Source: an uncultured Hylemonella sp.
GTDB lineage: Bacteria; Pseudomonadota; Gammaproteobacteria; Burkholderiales; Burkholderiaceae_C
Assembly: GCA_963513295.1 (NCBI GenBank)
Contig: CAUPQO010000001.1
Span: 4,367 to 68,366, forward strand
DNA: 64,000 nt
Reading direction: 5' to 3'
Shown: positions 601-40,211 of the stretch, piece by piece
Position numbering within the stretch: the stretch's first letter is position 1
How the letters are laid out: each line of letters begins with the position of its first letter
Notes under the pieces: model-generated
The model's database searches: none
What the model was told of the DNA's origin: nothing
The model's input: only the letters and a program-made list of their open reading frames with translations
Translations under genes and position numbers: made by a program

Positions 601-1473
601 TCAGAGGAACAGCGCCTCGAAGCCGGCCTCCGGCACGAAACGTTTTCCCTGGTAGCGCAGCCGCGTGGGGCCGGGCAGGGCGCGCGCGCCGACCGTGTGG
701 CGTGGGTCGCCAGGGTAGCAGAGTACGCGTACCCCGTTCTCGTCGTCGTAGGGCTCGGGCTGTACCAGGGCGGGTGTCTTGCCCCGTGCCTCGGCCAGTA
801 CGCCGGCCACGCTGGCGTGCCGCGCCAGGTGCGCCAGGCTCATGATCTGCGGTGGTGCCAGGTCGATGATGCTGTCGCGGTACTGTTCCAGCGCAGCGCG
901 TGGTGCCACCCAGAGGCTCTCGGTGGCTTCATGGTTGTCATGGCTTGCCGTCTGCACCGCCGGCACGGCAGCGACAAAAAAGCGCGTGTCGAAACGTTTG
1001 CTGCTGACCGAGGCCATCCTGGGCGTGACCCAGCGTGACCAGGGCAGCACGCTGCGGGTATCGAGCTTCAGGCCCATGCGTGTGAGCACCTCGGCAAAAC
1101 CATGGCCCTCACGTAGCAGGGTGGTGGCCTGGGCCACTTGTTGCGCACTGGCACCGTGCGCGTACAGTACGCCCGATTCCTCGAAAGCCTCGCGCAGTGC
1201 CGCCACGTAGCAACTGGCGGCCAGCTCGGCCGCCGTTTCAGGTTCGCCCAGTGCGCCGTGCAGGGTGGCCAAAGGCTGGTCCAGCTGTGGAATGAGTGCG
1301 GCGTCTTCGGCGTCGATCTTGCCGCCGGGAAACACATAGGCCCCGCCCAGCACATCGGAGGCGCTGTGGCGCTTGAGCAGGAATACCTCCAGCCCGGTGG
1401 GCGCATCGCGCAGCATGACCACGGTGGCTGCGTCGCGCGGCGGGGTTTCAATGAGGGTGCGGTTCAGTTCCAT
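601..1473 (-). CDS. NUDIX hydrolase
   Basis: PRDAATVVMLRD, YVFPGGK, ALREAFEESG Nudix box, RFDTRFFVA; start trimmed to ATG at 1473. Confidence 0.9.
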   Translation of the reverse strand: MELNRTLIETPPRDAATVVMLRDAPTGLEVFLLKRHSASDVLGGAYVFPGGKIDAEDAALIPQLDQPLATLHGALGEPETAAELAASCYVAALREAFEESGVLYAHGASAQQVAQATTLLREGHGFAEVLTRMGLKLDTRSVLPWSRWVTPRMASVSSKRFDTRFFVAAVPAVQTASHDNHEATESLWVAPRAALEQYRDSIIDLAPPQIMSLAHLARHASVAGVLAEARGKTPALVQPEPYDDENGVRVLCYPGDPRHTVGARALPGPTRLRYQGKRFVPEAGFEALFL

Positions 1474-1545
1474 CGTGTCGGGTGGGAGACGGGGTGGGTC
1501 ATGTTCGTCCGATAAGATTTGAACATACGTAACCAAGGAGACAGC

Positions 1546-2457
1546 ATGATCGACTTCAAGGGCCGTGTGGCCATCGTGACCGGGGCCGGTGGCGGACTGG
1601 GCCGCCAGCATGCGCTGGCTTTGGCCCGGCGCGGCGCCAAGGTGGTGGTGAACGACCTGGGCGGCGCACGCGACGGCTCGGGCGGTTCGGCCAGCGCTGC
1701 GCAGCAGGTGGTGGACGAGATCCGTGCCGCGGGAGGGGAGGCCATCGCGAACGCCGCGTCCGTCACCGACTTTGATGCCGTGCAGGCCATGGTGCAGCAG
1801 ACGATGGATAGCTGGGGCCGCGTGGACATCCTGGTCAACAATGCCGGCATCCTGCGCGACAAGACCTTCGCCAAGATGGAGCTGGCCGACTTCCGCCTGG
1901 TGCTGGACGTGCATCTCATGGGCGCCGTGCATTGCTGCAAGGCCGTCTGGCCCCATATGACGGCGCAGAAATACGGCCGCATCGTGATGACCACCTCGTC
2001 CAGCGGTCTCTACGGCAACTTCGGCCAGTCCAACTACGGCGCGGCCAAGCTGGCCTTGGTGGGCCTGATGCAGACGCTGTCCCTGGAAGGCGCGAAGAAC
2101 GACATCCGCGTCAACTGCCTGGCGCCGACCGCAGCCACGCGCATGACCGAAGACCTGATGCCGGCCGAAGTGCTGCGTGCCCTGCAGCCCGAGGCCGTGG
2201 TGCCCGCCATGCTGGTGCTGGCCAGCGCCGATGCGCCCACGCGCACCACGCTGTGCGCCGGCGCGGGTAGTGTCGAGGCCGCTCACATCACCATGACGCA
2301 GGGTGTATGGATCGGCATCGACGAGAGCGCCGACGTGCGCCTGCAGCAGCACCTGGCCGAAGTGCTGGACCGCACCAACGAGATGGTGCCCGGCAGCGGC
2401 GGCGCGCAGGGCACGCACGAGGTGGGGCGGGCGATGGCGATGCTGGGCCAGGGCTGA
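1546..2457 (+). CDS. SDR oxidoreductase (3-hydroxyacyl-CoA dehydrogenase/MFE-2-like)
   Basis: TGAGGGLG, VVVNDLGG, NNAGILRD, YGAAK; AAGGAG SD before ATG 1546. Confidence 0.9.
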   Translation: MIDFKGRVAIVTGAGGGLGRQHALALARRGAKVVVNDLGGARDGSGGSASAAQQVVDEIRAAGGEAIANAASVTDFDAVQAMVQQTMDSWGRVDILVNNAGILRDKTFAKMELADFRLVLDVHLMGAVHCCKAVWPHMTAQKYGRIVMTTSSSGLYGNFGQSNYGAAKLALVGLMQTLSLEGAKNDIRVNCLAPTAATRMTEDLMPAEVLRALQPEAVVPAMLVLASADAPTRTTLCAGAGSVEAAHITMTQGVWIGIDESADVRLQQHLAEVLDRTNEMVPGSGGAQGTHEVGRAMAMLGQG

Positions 2458-35318: not shown

Positions 35319-35882
35319 TCAGCCCACGGGGCAGGTCGGCTGGCTGAGAAATTCAATCTGGGTCAGGTACAGACGCAGATCGAACTCCAGCTGGTGGTAG
35401 TCGGGTTCCATGTGGGTGCAGAGCTGGTAGAAGGCTTTGTCGTGGGCCTTTTCCTTGAGGTGAGCCAGCTCGTGTACCACGATCATTCTCAGGAACTCGG
35501 GAGGCACGTTCTTGAACAGGGTGGCGATGCGAATTTCGCGTTTGCTCTTCAGCCTGGATCCTTGCACCCGCGAGACGCTGGTGTGCGTACCCAGGGCATG
35601 GTGGACGACGTGCAGCCTGCTGTCAAAACAGATCTTGTTCAGTGGCTCGGCACTGCGCAGGTATTCTGCCTTGAGGCCCTGCACGTAGTCGAACAGGGCC
35701 TTGTCGCTGCGGATGTCATGGGTGTCCGGGTACTTCTTGTGCAACACCTTCCCCAGCTGCTCGTTGGCCAGGAGCTGCCGCACCTGTTCCAGAACCGCTG
35801 GCTGGTACCCGGTGAGGTAGCGTAGCGGGTCTCTGGGTTGCGGCAGAGGTGTGGCGGCGCTGGGCGGCCGGGATGGTTTCAT
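35319..35882 (-). CDS. YgjP-like (M48/DUF45) HExxH metal-dependent hydrolase
   Basis: LRYLTGY, MIVVHELAHLKEKAHDKAFY, YHQLEFDLR. Confidence 0.88.
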   Translation of the reverse strand: MKPSRPPSAATPLPQPRDPLRYLTGYQPAVLEQVRQLLANEQLGKVLHKKYPDTHDIRSDKALFDYVQGLKAEYLRSAEPLNKICFDSRLHVVHHALGTHTSVSRVQGSRLKSKREIRIATLFKNVPPEFLRMIVVHELAHLKEKAHDKAFYQLCTHMEPDYHQLEFDLRLYLTQIEFLSQPTCPVG

Positions 35883-35889
35883 GGCTGCG

Positions 35890-35955
35890 TTAGCAATCCT
35901 TTAGGAATTTTCTAGTGAGTTCTTAAGAGACATGAGGCGGCCAGATTTCTAGACT
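35890..35955 (+). promoter_or_regulatory. Four 11-bp-phased direct repeats plus putative -10 for the hemerythrin-like gene
   Basis: TTAGCAATCCT/TTAGGAATTTT/CTAGTGAGTTC/TTAAGAGACAT at 35890-35933; TAGACT at 35950-35955. Confidence 0.6.
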
Positions 35956-36032
35956 TCCTGCATGTTCCTGCTCGGGGTGAGCGGGGACCAAGACCAGCCC
36001 GGCAGTTCTTCCGGGCCACCAGGAAGTAAACC

Positions 36033-36773
36033 ATGAAAATTGACACGAATGAAATGGCGAAGGTCGAGCGCGCCACCGGCACCGCCCCGAGGGTGGACCT
36101 TTACAGCGGCATCCACAAGGCCCTGCGAGCCCTGATGGCTGACATTCTGGTGGCCGTCGGCCGCATGGACCCGGAGGATGAATCCGAATTCGACTGGGTC
36201 AGTTCGCGTGTGCTGCAGCTGGCCGACGTCTGCACCTCGCATCTGATGCACGAGAACGAGTTCGTGCACGGGGCCATGGAGGCCTGCCAGCCGGGCTCCA
36301 GCGGGCGTATCGCCCATGAACACCTTGAGCATGGGGATGCGATCGCCCGCCTCAAGGACGCGGTGCAGCAGATGCGTGCCAGCCAGGGTGCGCGGCGTGC
36401 CGGCGAGGCCTTGTCCCTGTACCGGCAGCTGGCGCTGTTCGTTGCCCATAACTTCGAGCACATGCACACCGAGGAAACGGCGCACAACCAGGTTTTGTGG
36501 GCGCATTACAGCGATGAAGAACTGATGGCACTGCACGCCCGTCTGGTCGCTTCGCTGCCACCTGAGGAGAACCTGTTCGCACTGCGCTGGATGGTGCCTG
36601 CCATGACGCCGGCGGAACGCCTGCAGGTGCTCGGGGACATGCAGGCCCACGCTCCGGCACCAGCCTTTGCGGCCGCTCTGGACGTGGTGCAGCCGCACCT
36701 GGACCTGCGCGGCTGGGGCAAGCTTTCACGCGGCCTGGATCTGGCGCCGGTGGCAGGCCTGGTCGAGGTCTGA
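36033..36773 (+). CDS. Hemerythrin/HHE cation-binding domain protein
   Basis: IHKALR...HLMHENEFVH...HEHLEH...HMHTEE (H..HxxxE..H..HxxxE spacing); AGGAAG SD. Confidence 0.8.
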   Translation: MKIDTNEMAKVERATGTAPRVDLYSGIHKALRALMADILVAVGRMDPEDESEFDWVSSRVLQLADVCTSHLMHENEFVHGAMEACQPGSSGRIAHEHLEHGDAIARLKDAVQQMRASQGARRAGEALSLYRQLALFVAHNFEHMHTEETAHNQVLWAHYSDEELMALHARLVASLPPEENLFALRWMVPAMTPAERLQVLGDMQAHAPAPAFAAALDVVQPHLDLRGWGKLSRGLDLAPVAGLVEV

Positions 36774-36785
36774 GCCGTGGCGAGC

Positions 36786-38132
36786 CTAGTCGCCCTCACT
36801 GAGTTCGAGGGCGGCAGCCACGCACAGCCTGAACTGGCCACGGCCTGTCTTCTCGATGCGGATGGGCTGAGCCTGCTCGGCCAGCCGGCGCTCCAGCAGG
36901 ATCAGCCGGGCTTCCAGGTTGTCCACCACCTCCGGCAGGCCGATGCCGGGATCCAGTCGCAGTTCGCGGTTGCTGAATTCCGTTCGGCCGCGCTGTCGAT
37001 AGTCCTGCAGCAGCTTCCAGAAGATGGCGCCGGCCACGCCTTTGATGACATAGTGGTCGTTGAGAAAGATGCTGTTGTTGCTGCGGTAGCGGCGCACCTG
37101 CACCGTACCCTGCGCGACGGGACACGGCGCCGTGGTCGGCGGAGCCGCGGGCTCTGCCGTGGTGCCCGTGTCCAGGCGTAGCAGGTCGATGGCCGCTCCG
37201 AGGTGACCGGCGACGGTGACCAGGACATCCTCGTCTTCGAAGGTGAAGCGCAGTTCCTGCGTGCTTTCGACGAAGATCACACCCAATACCTGGCCGGTCG
37301 AGAGGATGGGTACGGCCATCTGGCTCTGCGGCCGGGGCAGGCCCGGGTAGGGGATGTCGGTATTGAGCGCCAGGCCAGGCTGCCCGCTCTCCATATTGCG
37401 GCGCACGGCATGGCTGTAGAGGCTGGCACTGGTCATGTGGGGGATGCGCACCGGGGTACGCTCGCGCGCCGCCATGCCGATCACGCCCTGGCCCAGTTCG
37501 ATCTCGGAGCCCACCCCGGACTCGGCGTAGCCATGGCTGGTCACGGTATAGAGGCGCTGCAGGGTCGGGTCCAGCAGCAGGATCATGGCGTGGGCGGTGC
37601 CGAATTCCTGTGTCAGGGTGGCCATCACCGCGCTCAGCGCATCGTCGAGCGTGCTGCAGCGTGCCAGCCGCTCGCTGCAGCGGCGCATCTGGCCTAGGAG
37701 GCCGCAGCGCGGCGGCGGAGCCTCCATGGCGTCACCAGGCACCTGCTCGATGGCCTGGATCTCGTAGATGTCCGATCCTTTGAGCTCGAACACGTCGGCC
37801 ATGCCGCTGTGCGAGGCGATTCCGGCCAGTTGGGCCCGCATGCTCTCGAACAGGGGCCCTTCGGTTTCGGTGTGCTGGTAACGGATCTGCAGCCGGTAGA
37901 AGATGCAGGTCTGGGGGTGCAGCAGCAGCAGCGTGGCCTGTGGGTGCGCCAGGATGTTCTGCCGTGTCTTGTTGAAAAACTGGAAGGACAAGGCGACGTG
38001 GCCAGCGTCCAGGTAATAGACTTGGGACAGATAGGCCACATTGGGGGTGCCGTCGGGCGCACAGGTGGCAATCATCGCAGGGATGATGCCTTCCAGGCAG
38101 GGCCGGATGTCGTCCAGGGTGGGTTCGTTCAT
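36786..38132 (-). CDS. PNPOx-like split barrel + GAF + C-terminal winged-helix protein (putative one-component regulator)
   Basis: ATCAPDGTPNV..KTRQNI..HP; GQGVIGMAA..SQMAVPI..LGVIFVES..FTFEDE; C-terminal LILLERRL..IRIEKTGRGQFRL. Confidence 0.8.
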   Translation of the reverse strand: MNEPTLDDIRPCLEGIIPAMIATCAPDGTPNVAYLSQVYYLDAGHVALSFQFFNKTRQNILAHPQATLLLLHPQTCIFYRLQIRYQHTETEGPLFESMRAQLAGIASHSGMADVFELKGSDIYEIQAIEQVPGDAMEAPPPRCGLLGQMRRCSERLARCSTLDDALSAVMATLTQEFGTAHAMILLLDPTLQRLYTVTSHGYAESGVGSEIELGQGVIGMAARERTPVRIPHMTSASLYSHAVRRNMESGQPGLALNTDIPYPGLPRPQSQMAVPILSTGQVLGVIFVESTQELRFTFEDEDVLVTVAGHLGAAIDLLRLDTGTTAEPAAPPTTAPCPVAQGTVQVRRYRSNNSIFLNDHYVIKGVAGAIFWKLLQDYRQRGRTEFSNRELRLDPGIGLPEVVDNLEARLILLERRLAEQAQPIRIEKTGRGQFRLCVAAALELSEGD

Positions 38133-38659
38133 GCCCGAGCTCCGCTGCCCGGCAATTGCGATCCGGCTTTGGGGCCGGGGGTCTGGTCGTAGGCCTGCTC
38201 CGGCGCGAAGCTGACGGCGACGACATCGGCCAGCTGGTGCGCCAGCATGGCGCGGGTCTGCTCAGCCCGGATGCCCACGTGGGCGAGCTGTCCTTCCATG
38301 GCCCGCAGATAGCGTTGCAGCAGATCCGATTCGGCCGGCAGGGCCGCGCGCAGCTGCACGGCGCTGGCTTTCACCTGGACCGTGCGGTGGGTGGAGGGCT
38401 CGCTGAACACCACGGCAATGTGTCCCGTGGCCTGCAGGTCGGCCAGCAACTGGGCGGAGCTGGGACGGTTCAGGTAGACGGTGATGCGATCACCCTGAGG
38501 CGTGATGCTGGCGCCGACCGCCCGCATCAGGCTGGGGCGCTGCGCAGCGTCGCGCGAGGCGACGATGGTGGACACCCCGCTGTCTATCAGGGCGATGTGT
38601 TCGGCGCTGAGCAGGCCTGGTCCGCCTGTCGTCTTGCCTGTCATGGGGGTGTCCTTCAT
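38129..38659 (-). CDS. Stand-alone PNPOx-like split-barrel protein
   Basis: IVASRDAAQRPS, IAVVFSEPSTHRTVQVK, YDQTPGPKAG; stop overlaps the next start (ATGA). Confidence 0.72.
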   Translation of the reverse strand: MKDTPMTGKTTGGPGLLSAEHIALIDSGVSTIVASRDAAQRPSLMRAVGASITPQGDRITVYLNRPSSAQLLADLQATGHIAVVFSEPSTHRTVQVKASAVQLRAALPAESDLLQRYLRAMEGQLAHVGIRAEQTRAMLAHQLADVVAVSFAPEQAYDQTPGPKAGSQLPGSGARA

Positions 38660-38678: not shown

Positions 38679-40211
38679 TCAGCCCTCGCGGCGCAGCGCG
38701 GGGAAGAGGATCACGTCGCGGATGCTGGGGCTGTCGGTCAGCAGCATCATCAGGCGGTCGATGCCGATGCCGCAGCCGCCGGTGGGCGGCATGCCATATT
38801 CGAGGGCGCGCACGAAGTCATGGTCGAAGAACATGGCCTCGTCGTCGCCGCTGTCCTTGGCCGCCACCTGGCTGTGAAAGCGTGCGGCCTGCTCCTCGGC
38901 ATCGTTGAGCTCGGAGAAACCGTTGCCGAACTCGCGGCCGGTGATGTAGAGCTCGAAACGTTCGGTCACGTCCGGGCGCGTGTCGCTGGCGCGCGCCAGC
39001 GGCGAGATTTCCACCGGGTGCTCGCAGATGAAGGTGGGCTGCCAGAGCTTCTCTTCCACCACTTCTTCGAAGTACAGCACTTGCAGGCTGGACAGTGAAC
39101 GGGTCGAGAGCTTGTGCTTCTCCTCGTTCATGCCGAGTTTCTTGAGCGCGTTGATCAGCCAGGCGCTGTCGTCGACGAAGGCGCTGCCGGCTTCGCTGTG
39201 GCGGATGATGGCTTCGCGGATGGTCAGGCGCTCGAAGGGCTGGGCCAGATCCACCGGCTTGCCGCCGTAGCTCAGTTGCAAGGTGCCCGTGGCCTGCTGG
39301 GCGGCATGGCGCACCAGGCCTTCGGTGAAGGTCATGAGGTCCTGGTAGTCCCAGTAGGCCGCATAGAACTCCATCATGGTGAACTCGGGGTTGTGGCGCA
39401 CCGAGATGCCTTCGTTGCGGAAGTTGCGGTTGATCTCGAACACGCGTTCGAAACCACCGACGATCAGGCGCTTGAGAAAAAGTTCGGGCGCAATGCGCAG
39501 GAACATCTCCTGGTCCAGCGCGTTGTGGTGCGTGATGAAAGGCTTGGCATTGGCGCCGCCCGGGATCGGGTGCAGCATCGGCGTCTCGACTTCCAGGAAG
39601 CGATGCGAAACCATGAACTCGCGGATCGAGCTCACGGCCTTGCTGCGCGCGACGAAGCGCTGGCGCGCCTCCTCGTCGGTCATCAGGTCCACGTAACGCT
39701 GGCGGTACTTGACCTCCTGGTCGGCCACGCCATGGAACTTGTCGGGCATGGGGCGCAGGCTCTTGGTCAGCAGGCGCACGCTCGTCGCCTGGATGGACAG
39801 CTCGCCGGTCTTGGTCTTGAAGACCAGGCCTTCGGCGGCCACGATGTCGCCCAGGTCCCAGTGCTTGAAGGTCTCGTAGGCCTCTTCGCCGATCTCGTCG
39901 CGCTTGACGTAGATCTGGATGCGGCCGCTGCTGTCCTGCAGGGTGGCGAAGCTGGCCTTGCCCATGACGCGCTTGAGCATCATGCGGCCGGCCACGCTGG
40001 CGCGACTGGCCTGGGCCAGCAGGCCCTCGGGGGTCTGGCCGGCGTGGGCGGCGAAGAGGTCGGCCGCACGGTCGGCCGGCTTGAAGTCGTTGGGGAAGGC
40101 CGGGCCCTTGCCCTCGACCTGCCGCTGGCGGATGGCCTTGAGCTTTTCGCGCCGTTCGGCGATCAGCTGGTTTTCGTCCTGGGCGGGGGCAGCGGTGTGT
40201 TGTTCTGACAT
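38679..40211 (-). CDS. lysS: Lysine--tRNA ligase (class II)
   Basis: [43 protein letters not shown]. Confidence 0.98.

Follow-up and report, generated by a model that had tools for sequence, protein, structure and literature searches.

Paired split-barrel proteins and a conserved predicted operator suggest a kinase-free transcriptional regulator

Introduction

In an uncultured Hylemonella sp., a gene for a hemerythrin-like protein lies next to two genes for split-barrel-like proteins. Do these two proteins form a sensory module that controls their neighbor, and if so, through which DNA site and in response to what? To answer this, we analyzed a 64,000-nucleotide stretch of DNA (‘the window’) together with related loci from genomes and metagenomes. 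Our best reading is a transcriptional activator that consists of two proteins, works without a kinase and serves a small redox regulon, and for which DNA binding, cofactor and signal are predictions. The locus comprises the following genes.

36033..36773, plus strand: hemerythrin-like gene, predicted target (246 aa)
36786..38132, minus strand: regulator gene (448 aa), encoding a split barrel, a GAF domain and a likely OmpR/PhoB-type winged helix, without a receiver domain
38129..38644, minus strand: partner split-barrel-like gene, likely 171 aa from Met6; the open frame extends to 38659 (176 aa)
38679..40211, minus strand: lysS, the upstream neighbor in this lineage only

Results

Gene layout of the locus

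In the ORF calls, the 176-aa frame and the 448-aa gene overlap by ATGA, as a preliminary description of this DNA had reported, and the hemerythrin-like gene runs convergently to the regulator gene, leaving a gap of 12 nt. The small barrel frame lies 19 nt from the end of lysS (38679), and a search of the interval between lysS and the small barrel gene returned no terminator-like site. Both of these earlier observations held. The proposed 176-aa start is likely to need correction, as the small barrel gene probably begins at Met6 (38644; 171 aa). We prefer this start because in 86% of 147 homologues the start Met falls on Met6, an AAGGA sits 7 nt upstream of it, and one same-genus locus lacks the first ATG while keeping that of Met6.

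lysS linkage was seen in 6/6 same-genus loci and in five close metagenome loci, and is absent in L001, L004 and L005. A functional tie to lysS was rejected on account of this local linkage; lysS probably supplies read-through transcription to the barrel pair. The window had been described as encoding neither receiver nor kinase, and a Pfam scan of 53 of its 61 called ORFs indeed gave no match to either family.

The regulator combines a split barrel, a GAF domain and a likely winged helix

Three parts can be delineated in the 448-aa protein.

37731..38132, minus strand: N-terminal split barrel, aa 1-134 (PNPOx_N E 2.3e-9; fold matches)
37167..37712, minus strand: GAF domain, aa 141-322 (Pfam GAF_2 E 1.6e-16; low-confidence insert at aa 234-257)
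36792..37106, minus strand: predicted C-terminal winged-helix domain, aa 343-447 (model pLDDT 85.9; predicted recognition helix DNLEARLILLERRL)

Pfam places PNPOx_N (PF01243) above cut-off at aa 7-122 and the GAF match at aa 160-316. Alignment of 81 homologues revealed conserved barrel residues at N31, S36, Q51-F-F, K55-T56, N59, H108 and M111. The GAF domain is nearest to small-molecule-binding GAFs (fRMsr, PtsP, NifA), with fRMsr (3mmh, Z 21.6) and the PtsP GAF (3trc, Z 21.4) as fold neighbors. Free methionine-R-sulfoxide reductases carry conserved catalytic cysteines in the GAF pocket; the regulator's only cysteines conserved above 50% are at positions 12, 24 and 159, with none in aa 160-322, and this enzymatic identity was rejected.

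Whole-protein fold searches were filled by GAF matches, and the C-terminal domain was therefore folded alone. The resulting model matched BaeR (4b09; rmsd 2.7, 96 aligned residues) and the five fold-search rows after BaeR all belong to the OmpR/PhoB family, at scores that are middling (Z 10.2; Foldseek best E 0.006). PDB sequence searches placed neither this domain nor the partner, and Pfam Trans_reg_C matched none of 35 regulator family members at E values up to 1. An Atlas search with the C-terminal part of a homologue returned unnamed clusters plus one Trans_reg_C cluster at 0.87, a lead only. Judging from the model, the C-terminus is likely an OmpR/PhoB-type winged helix with a presumed DNA-binding function. 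The preliminary description, which had proposed this three-part architecture and suggested fold searches on each domain, is thereby supported.

Because the DNA-binding domain escapes Pfam, the regulator family is hidden under database labels such as ‘GAF domain-containing protein’, ‘adenylate cyclase’ and ‘histidine kinase’. We rejected the JGI label ‘adenylate cyclase’, as the 448-aa architecture contains no cyclase domain. PdxH/Pdx3 enzymes are marked by a C-terminal PF10590 domain with an EFWxxxxxRxHxR motif (PMC4556617). Neither regulator nor partner matched PF10590 in Pfam, the motif was not seen in their alignments, and PdxH/Pdx3 identity was accordingly rejected for both.

The two barrels are encoded side by side and are predicted to pair

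The partner is characterized by near-invariant Q95-x-K97 and Q159-T-P-G-P-x-A-G166. Six of 25 partner homologues match PNPOx_N weakly (best E 0.0011), and the partner aligns colinearly, in a weak match, with the regulator barrel profile (E 8e-4, probability 25%). Carriers include Rhizobium etli CFN42, whose p42e-encoded partner orthologue is annotated in RefSeq as a pyridoxamine 5'-phosphate oxidase family protein, and Azoarcus olearius (partner homologue); all named matches among those seen are Pseudomonadota.

A contig scan with a single protein returned only two loci, and the following counts stem from wider genome and metagenome searches. The partner lies directly upstream of the regulator in 30/30 loci retrieved by tblastn with the window's own protein, in all 39 distinct genome loci retrieved by profile, and in 79 of 80 metagenome loci (the sole miss has 53 nt of flank), although the metagenome counts are not independent since these 80 loci, the closest to the query, are related. 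Co-occurrence of the pair, which the preliminary description had wished to see surveyed, is thus well documented. Partner-regulator fusions were found in L024 and L028 (one genus), in P0180 (660 aa) and in six proteins of 638-690 aa; L064, considered as another, consists of two separate genes.

Modeling of the barrel pair as a complex yielded an ipSAE of 0.94 in three runs, as compared to 0.01 for the best of three controls, with 100% contact agreement and a partner pLDDT of at least 93; resemblance to the many solved homodimers of split barrels may account for this score. The mark applied to such scores is reached by 116 of 157 solved complexes and by 2 of 215 mismatched pairs. At the modeled interface, regulator N31 touches partner Q95 and K97. 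The model lends support to the earlier proposal of a heterodimer, and we consider it very probable that the two proteins are an obligate pair.

A phased repeat precedes the hemerythrin-like gene

Upstream of the hemerythrin-like gene, we annotated three elements.

35888..35931, plus strand: predicted operator of four 11-bp-phased units (CGTTAGCAATC CTTTAGGAATT TTCTAGTGAGT TCTTAAGAGAC); TTAG units, family core YTTAGS
35950..35955, plus strand: predicted -10 element TAGACT, 18 nt past the fourth operator unit
36021..36026, plus strand: likely ribosome-binding site AGGAAG of the hemerythrin gene, from sequence

A convergent hemerythrin-like gene with a phased direct-repeat promoter had been described before, and both components were recovered here, the former through a Pfam Hemerythrin match (PF01814) at aa 22-148 of the 246-aa protein. 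Its diiron ligand set (H28 / H70xxxE74 / H97-H100 / H143xxxE147), conserved in at least 90% of 26 aligned homologues, corresponds to the H-HxxxE-H-HxxxE motif of hemerythrin-like proteins (PMC12022348). The protein further possesses a conserved C-terminal extension of ~95 aa, and its nearest solved sequence is the FBXL5 hemerythrin domain (E 6e-9). RIC, YtfE and DnrN identities were rejected (20.8, 17.6 and 16.5 bits versus NCBIfam cut-offs of 204.7, 300 and 254), as was a riboswitch or structured leader (no Rfam match; leader z-score -0.33).

The four-unit repeat is far above chance. Using a matrix trained without the window's own locus, the operator emerged as the top match among 6.7 million own-genome positions (28.3, with the next independent site at 14.1), and one of 2151 upstream regions scored above 14; its score is nonetheless weaker than those of same-genus loci (39-50). 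The operator was found in 66 of 80 metagenome loci, including 45 of the 46 that have 1.5 kb or more of sequence on each side, while controls gave 0/80 shuffles and 1/270 own-genome tiles. At the -10 offset, which falls outside the scored matrix, 59 of the 66 metagenome sites carry nAnnnT and 35 carry TAGACT.

The predicted operator follows the regulator

Behind the best site in these 66 loci, the first gene encodes a hemerythrin (51), a cytochrome c (11), E1 alpha/beta (2), a cupin (1) or is unclear (1); elsewhere, the site precedes genes for c-type cytochromes, flavin monooxygenases, cupins or E1 alpha/beta. No operator site was present in two 99%-complete genomes that have the hemerythrin and in which no regulator was found. 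By these sequence comparisons, the predicted operator tracks the regulator, not hemerythrin, and hemerythrin is only one of several interchangeable predicted targets. The earlier assignment of the hemerythrin gene as target hence survives in part: a conserved predicted operator stands in front of it, but it is one predicted target among several rather than the target.

A sister regulator clade (9/81 rows, one branch, support 100) has sites composed of TTAGG pairs spaced 11-(20/21)-11, which is also true for a Cupriavidus member. G128 has no site beside its regulator; a scan of its genome located a single one, which lies on a different contig, carries TACCTT at the -10 offset and precedes an operon containing the diheme-cytochrome family that G290 has as its adjacent target. 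The surroundings of the regulator yielded no site in L049/L106, L059/L103, L067 and L164, and L013 has a degenerate site only (score 3.5). An IUPAC pattern scan, which is less sensitive than the matrix and missed the known site of G242, found none in G162 and G312. The pattern had no matches in 5/5 near-complete genomes without the regulator, with one match for the backwards control. Conversely, G168 (87% complete, 790 contigs) has the hemerythrin and a strong site, and no regulator was found. The held-out matrix identified a single operator site in the own genome. We hold with high confidence that the regulator binds the operator at 35888-35931.

A model for sensing and its alternatives

We consider it likely that the barrel pair is a heterodimeric cofactor-binding sensor on a kinase-free transcription factor that binds 35888-35931 and activates the hemerythrin promoter. 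The barrels would pair as split-barrel homodimers do, but asymmetrically, with the regulator keeping the K55-T56/N59 helix cap and the partner lacking the cap while keeping Q95-x-K97 and the QTPGP tail. As the barrel halves have diverged and kept complementary residues, only the heterodimer would provide one well-conserved pocket. The GAF domain, itself possibly a binder of another small molecule, would relay a redox or ligand change at this pocket to the winged helices. These would form a head-to-tail row along the repeats, with the last one placed at -35, and would recruit RNA polymerase in the manner of PhoB. The output would be a small regulon of redox or detoxifying proteins, with one site in the own genome.

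The pocket occupant would most likely be a flavin, a call that we regard as evenly balanced; that the signal is of an oxidative or nitrosative type we put forward with slightly less assurance. For many proteins that are split barrels or have PF01243 only, FMN is not a ligand (PMC4556617; PMC11602992). It is possible, if doubtful, that the same regulator and operator work with a barrel pair binding heme or no cofactor, the signal being heme, a gas or a GAF-bound metabolite. HupZ (7kpz, Z 14.8) is about as close a fold neighbor of the regulator barrel as FMN-binding Swol_0183 (3in6, Z 15.5), H108 and M111 are conserved in 86% and 96% of the 81 homologues, residues 109 and 111 lie at the modeled interface, many targets are heme or iron proteins, and the GAF's nearest relatives bind small molecules. 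However, H108 is not invariant (Q in 9%), and K55-T56-N59 together with the partner's Q-x-K resembles what we take to be the flavin-phosphate site motif of PNPOx-like structures.

Regarding the direction of control, a protein on the same repeats could repress by covering the -35 position and leaving it upon a signal. The -35 position, which in the window reads GAGACA (4/6 to consensus), lies partly under the fourth unit, and with 8 of 12 bases matching the consensus (GAGACA, 17 nt, TAGACT), the promoter might work unaided. Yet, in relatives the repeat fills the -35 position without TTGACA conservation, and the other three units lie upstream of the -35 at a fixed distance to the -10, which is the usual layout of OmpR/PhoB-type activators. 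Repression appears unlikely to us, and activation by the regulator quite probable.

That the small barrel protein acts on its own, as a flavin enzyme or anti-activator, and is only co-transcribed with a regulator whose barrel is homodimeric, is quite unlikely. Split barrels are usually homodimers, as PMC4556617 states for Pdx3. Speaking for the obligate pair instead are strict adjacency with translational overlap, in-frame fusions and the complementary conservation of the two barrel halves. Finally, the own genome has ten canonical Trans_reg_C matches, TTAA-type 11-bp repeats are known for the response regulators PmrA and SaeR, and G168 has a site without a detected regulator, but it is very unlikely that the repeats are the site of an ordinary response regulator of the OmpR family whose gene lies elsewhere, with the barrel-GAF protein a mere neighbor, given that the site stays beside this protein while the target gene changes, that its spacing changes with the regulator clade, that the five near-complete regulator-less genomes lacked the pattern (one backwards-control match), and that the own genome has a single site.

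Discussion

The pair is likely an unstudied cofactor-based sensor kept together across many Proteobacteria. Tentatively, it may represent the first case of a transcription factor that is gated by a split-barrel heterodimer. The two diverged halves would share a single flavin pocket for redox or nitrosative sensing without a kinase, and the factor would control, across Proteobacteria, a mobile regulon whose detoxification proteins are of the diiron, heme and flavin types and include a bacterial relative of the iron-sensing domain of FBXL5. The regulator family is widespread and comes with a mapped predicted operator, a predicted promoter and a short target list, and the whole system is therefore testable in E. 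coli or a native carrier strain. If the cofactor model is true, sensing on behalf of a transcription factor would be a new role for split barrels. The signal, once found, would point to a function for three orphan target families (the extended hemerythrin, a ~165-aa monoheme cytochrome and a small COX1-like membrane protein), and synthetic biology would gain a compact part in the four-repeat activated promoter. Literature searches returned no description of a barrel-pair/GAF/winged-helix system, in keeping with the preliminary description, which knew of none.

Among known systems, OmpR/PhoB response regulators (BaeR 4b09, GlnR 8hml, AdeR 5x5l, SaeR 4u88, PhoB 1gxp, PmrA 4s04) share the predicted effector fold, modeled as a four-stranded sheet, three helices and a beta wing, as well as tandem direct repeats of 11 bp whose distance to the -10 is fixed, as at the window's predicted operator. 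In contrast to them, the window regulator has neither receiver domain nor kinase, takes its input from a split barrel, a GAF domain and a separate partner, and shows 5-17% identity in fold alignments, with Trans_reg_C at 0/35. OmpR-type winged helices without a phosphorelay also exist in one-component regulators (CadC 5ju7, Z 7.9; ToxR 8b4b, Z 7.1; SARP-type AfsR 8hvr, Z 6.2), and ToxR and TcpP depend on a small partner from a neighboring gene. Compared with CadC, ToxR, TcpP and AfsR, the predicted winged helix here is C-terminal, the model does not span a membrane, and the regulator's own N-terminal domain has a probable relative in the split-barrel-like partner.

As for the predicted target, hemerythrin-like proteins (FBXL5 and BRUTUS/HRZ domains; RIC/YtfE/DnrN) share its H-HxxxE-H-HxxxE motif, and it differs from them as a stand-alone bacterial protein with a conserved C-terminal extension and scores far below the RIC, YtfE and DnrN cut-offs. 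In a survey of split barrels, the regulatory families named are limited to c-di-GMP receptors, a GluTR regulator and CREG-like proteins, and neither GAF nor DNA-binding occurs in the main text (bioRxiv 10.1101/2024.11.13.623527). With FMN, heme and F420 split barrels (Swol_0183 3in6, HupZ 5esc/7kpz, HutZ, PNPOx/Pdx3), the regulator's N-terminal domain shares the barrel fold, and the pair a predicted dimer with an interface pocket; what sets the pair apart is that the dimer is predicted to be a heterodimer and is joined to a GAF domain and a DNA-binding-type domain.

Gene organization at the locus

The window, which looks like a betaproteobacterial chromosome segment, carries on its minus strand a partner–regulator pair that begins 19 nt past lysS, and a hemerythrin-like gene converging on it. 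The preliminary description had reported this spacing without a terminator, an ATGA overlap of the two frames and the lack of a kinase or receiver in the window. The spacing and overlap were confirmed, no terminator-like site was found in the lysS-to-pair gap, and kinase and receiver families matched none of the 53 of 61 window ORFs scanned. The proposed 176-codon frame is likewise present, but Met6 (38644) is the most likely start of the small gene.

Features of the locus (ORF calls)
36033-36773, convergent with the pair: hemerythrin-like gene, 246 codons
36786-38132, minus strand: regulator, 448 codons, overlapping the partner frame by ATGA
38129-38659, minus strand: partner, 176 codons

The nearest named regulator homologues belong to Ottowia, Curvibacter, Hylemonella, Comamonas and Rhodoferax. 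Elsewhere in the window, a 605-aa ORF (601-2418, minus strand) had no Pfam match at E 1e-10.

Domain architecture of the regulator

Pfam recovered the barrel and GAF parts proposed earlier (PNPOx_N, residues 7-122; GAF, 160-316) and matched nothing in the last 110 residues. In a model built from a 42-sequence alignment (mean pLDDT 83, pTM 0.82), the barrel resembled 3in6, which binds FMN (Z 15.5), as well as HupZ (Z 14.8), and the GAF resembled fRMsr (Z 21.6) and PtsP (Z 21.4); an fRMsr enzyme is ruled out, as residues 160-322 hold no conserved cysteine. The suggested winged-helix C-terminus held in the model: folded alone, this domain had only OmpR/PhoB effector domains among its top six fold matches, led by BaeR (Z 10.2, rmsd 2.7, 96 aligned). 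Foldseek placed SaeR and AdeR on top, at E values of only 0.006-0.01. Annotation of the family is uninformative because Trans_reg_C matches none of 35 members.

Distribution and pairing with the partner

The homologue search scored 7998 candidates and yielded 5851 hits. Genomes found to carry the regulator number 28 of 301 in the order (own genome counted), 13 of 401 in the phylum and 6 of 24 in the genus; it also occurs on 20 plasmid records, including R. etli p42e and several from Sinorhizobium. The anticipated co-occurrence of the two genes was borne out by the neighbourhood survey: the partner lay directly upstream of the regulator in 30/30 loci when the window's protein served as tblastn query, in 39/39 distinct genome loci by a profile built from 25 rows, and in 79/80 metagenome loci. 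The L002 copy of the partner carries an internal stop. In-frame partner–regulator fusions were found at L024 and L028 (one genus); P0180 (660 aa) is such a fusion, as are six proteins 638-690 aa long.

The partner, whose profile matches 2273 clusters (50% identity), is by sequence probably a diverged split barrel. Its residue 50 (region 38497-38511) is Cys in 85% of 147 homologues and Ala in the window copy, where a Cys is therefore not essential.

A predicted heterodimeric barrel head

The modelled complex of partner and regulator barrel scored 0.94 against 0.01 for the best control, with 100% of contacts shared between runs and a partner pLDDT of at least 93; the score mark was attained by 116/157 solved complexes and 2/215 mismatched pairs. 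As a model, the heterodimer suggested earlier passes its controls, but the pass may reflect likeness to split-barrel homodimers, since these are solved. In the proposed head, the regulator would give K55-T56/N59, N31 and S36, and the partner Q95-x-K97 and a QTPGP tail. These residues are 82-100% conserved, and N31 contacts Q95 and K97 in the model.

By comparison with PNPOx-like structures, these residues may form a flavin-phosphate site. The barrel pair may bind heme instead, with which the conserved H108 and M111 of the regulator are compatible. A flavin site shared between two chains would have a counterpart in Pdx3, whose FMN cavities are formed by both monomers, according to PMC4556617; the same paper notes that many PF01243-only proteins do not bind FMN, a caution repeated in PMC11602992. 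The pair was rejected as a PNP oxidase.

A predicted phased operator precedes the putative target genes

Upstream of hemerythrin genes adjoining the regulator lie four 11-bp units with the core YTTAGS, in line with the phased direct repeats described earlier. A matrix from 15 relatives, which included neither the window locus nor two near-duplicates nor the degenerate L013 site, gave 35888-35931 the top score among 6.7 million own-genome positions; it was the sole upstream region above 14 of 2151. Scores exceeded 20 in 66/80 metagenome loci outside the training set, the closest 80 of 548 confirmed and hence biased toward kin, and in 45/46 of those with 1.5 kb on both sides. Among controls, 0/80 shuffles and 1/270 own-genome tiles (the window locus itself) did so. 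The predicted operator is thus well supported.

A -10-like hexamer follows 18 nt past the site in 59 of these 66 loci, and in the window at this fixed offset:
35950: TAGACT, ahead of the hemerythrin gene

We infer activation because the last repeat occupies the -35 position and no consensus is present there in relatives; the regulator would activate the hemerythrin promoter from there. It may instead repress. A YgjP/M48-like metallopeptidase gene (35319-35882, minus strand), adjoining the operator in some close relatives only, points away from it and starts 5 nt from it, so its promoter could be affected by bound regulator.

The predicted operator accompanies the regulator

By its distribution in sequence, the predicted operator follows the regulator, not hemerythrin. 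At loci without a neighbouring hemerythrin, the gene behind the site encodes a ~165-aa monoheme cytochrome c, a diheme cytochrome, a cupin or a flavin monooxygenase; hemerythrin and cytochrome share an operon at L140, L171, L174 and L176. In G128 a single site was found, distant from the regulator and ahead of a diheme cytochrome whose family supplies the neighbouring target in G290. Of 22 order genomes carrying this hemerythrin, 19 have the regulator; in two 99%-complete others neither regulator nor site was detected, and a fragmented third has the site with no regulator detected. Counting against this pattern, no site lay near the regulator at L049, L059, L067 or L164, and that of L013 is degenerate.

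A sister clade (34-39% identity; one branch, 9/81 tree rows) has TTAGG pairs spaced 11-(20/21)-11 in 6/11 promoter regions and partial forms (20-11 or 11-31) in 4/11, and L061 retains a four-unit site; its Cupriavidus member has the 11-21-11 form. Two loci of a different class from the window's, L057 and L058, combine a window-type regulator with the 11-11-11 form.

Another predicted target is an E1 alpha/beta pair behind an inverted four-unit site followed by a TAnnnT hexamer (L156:6400-6500, L158, L162, L183, L053), often then a small COX1-like membrane gene; no E2 gene was seen adjoining these pairs. The promoter seems indifferent to which way the operator faces. In G120 (L065:2814-4830), the operator of the hemerythrin gene retains only its last two units; a gene for a PAS hybrid kinase, immediately upstream of hemerythrin, is possibly an insertion that broke the site.

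Predicted targets point to redox or detoxification chemistry

The predicted hemerythrin target carries the H-HxxxE-H-HxxxE set, a hemerythrin-like diiron motif in PMC12022348; among solved proteins, human FBXL5 is nearest to it in sequence. The second commonest target, the exported monoheme cytochrome c (L046:6560-7066 and homologues; CNDCH ... GPWGTTYP ... PPMPWF), falls below Pfam/NCBIfam assignment save for a weak Cytochrom_C match. Operons behind the operator also repeatedly hold a ~125-140-aa membrane protein that has a conserved HxHxNLxGW motif and matches COX1 weakly, no family being above cut-off:
L052:2190-2573
L099:1425-1796
L156:8568-8990

On R. etli p42e (L066, 195000-200900), genes for a cupin, an arylamine N-acetyltransferase and YceI run divergently from the pair behind the variant operator, and genes for a cytochrome c, a GNAT and a PNPOx-family protein converge on it; this company hints at amine or xenobiotic detoxification. 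The target list as a whole points to redox or detoxification chemistry.

Relation to known systems

As the preliminary description had supposed, no account of this two-protein regulator turned up in the literature searched, which left most subscription journals outside. A split-barrel survey (bioRxiv 10.1101/2024.11.13.623527) has no GAF or DNA-binding family in its main text; its supplements could include the cluster. The predicted two-protein regulator is a real and conserved pair, linked to a variable putative redox regulon, and appears to be undescribed. A response regulator is ruled out by the absent receiver, in which the protein differs from PhoB and OmpR; like them, it is predicted to act on tandem repeats, and, by analogy with ToxR/ToxS and CadC, it would need no kinase.
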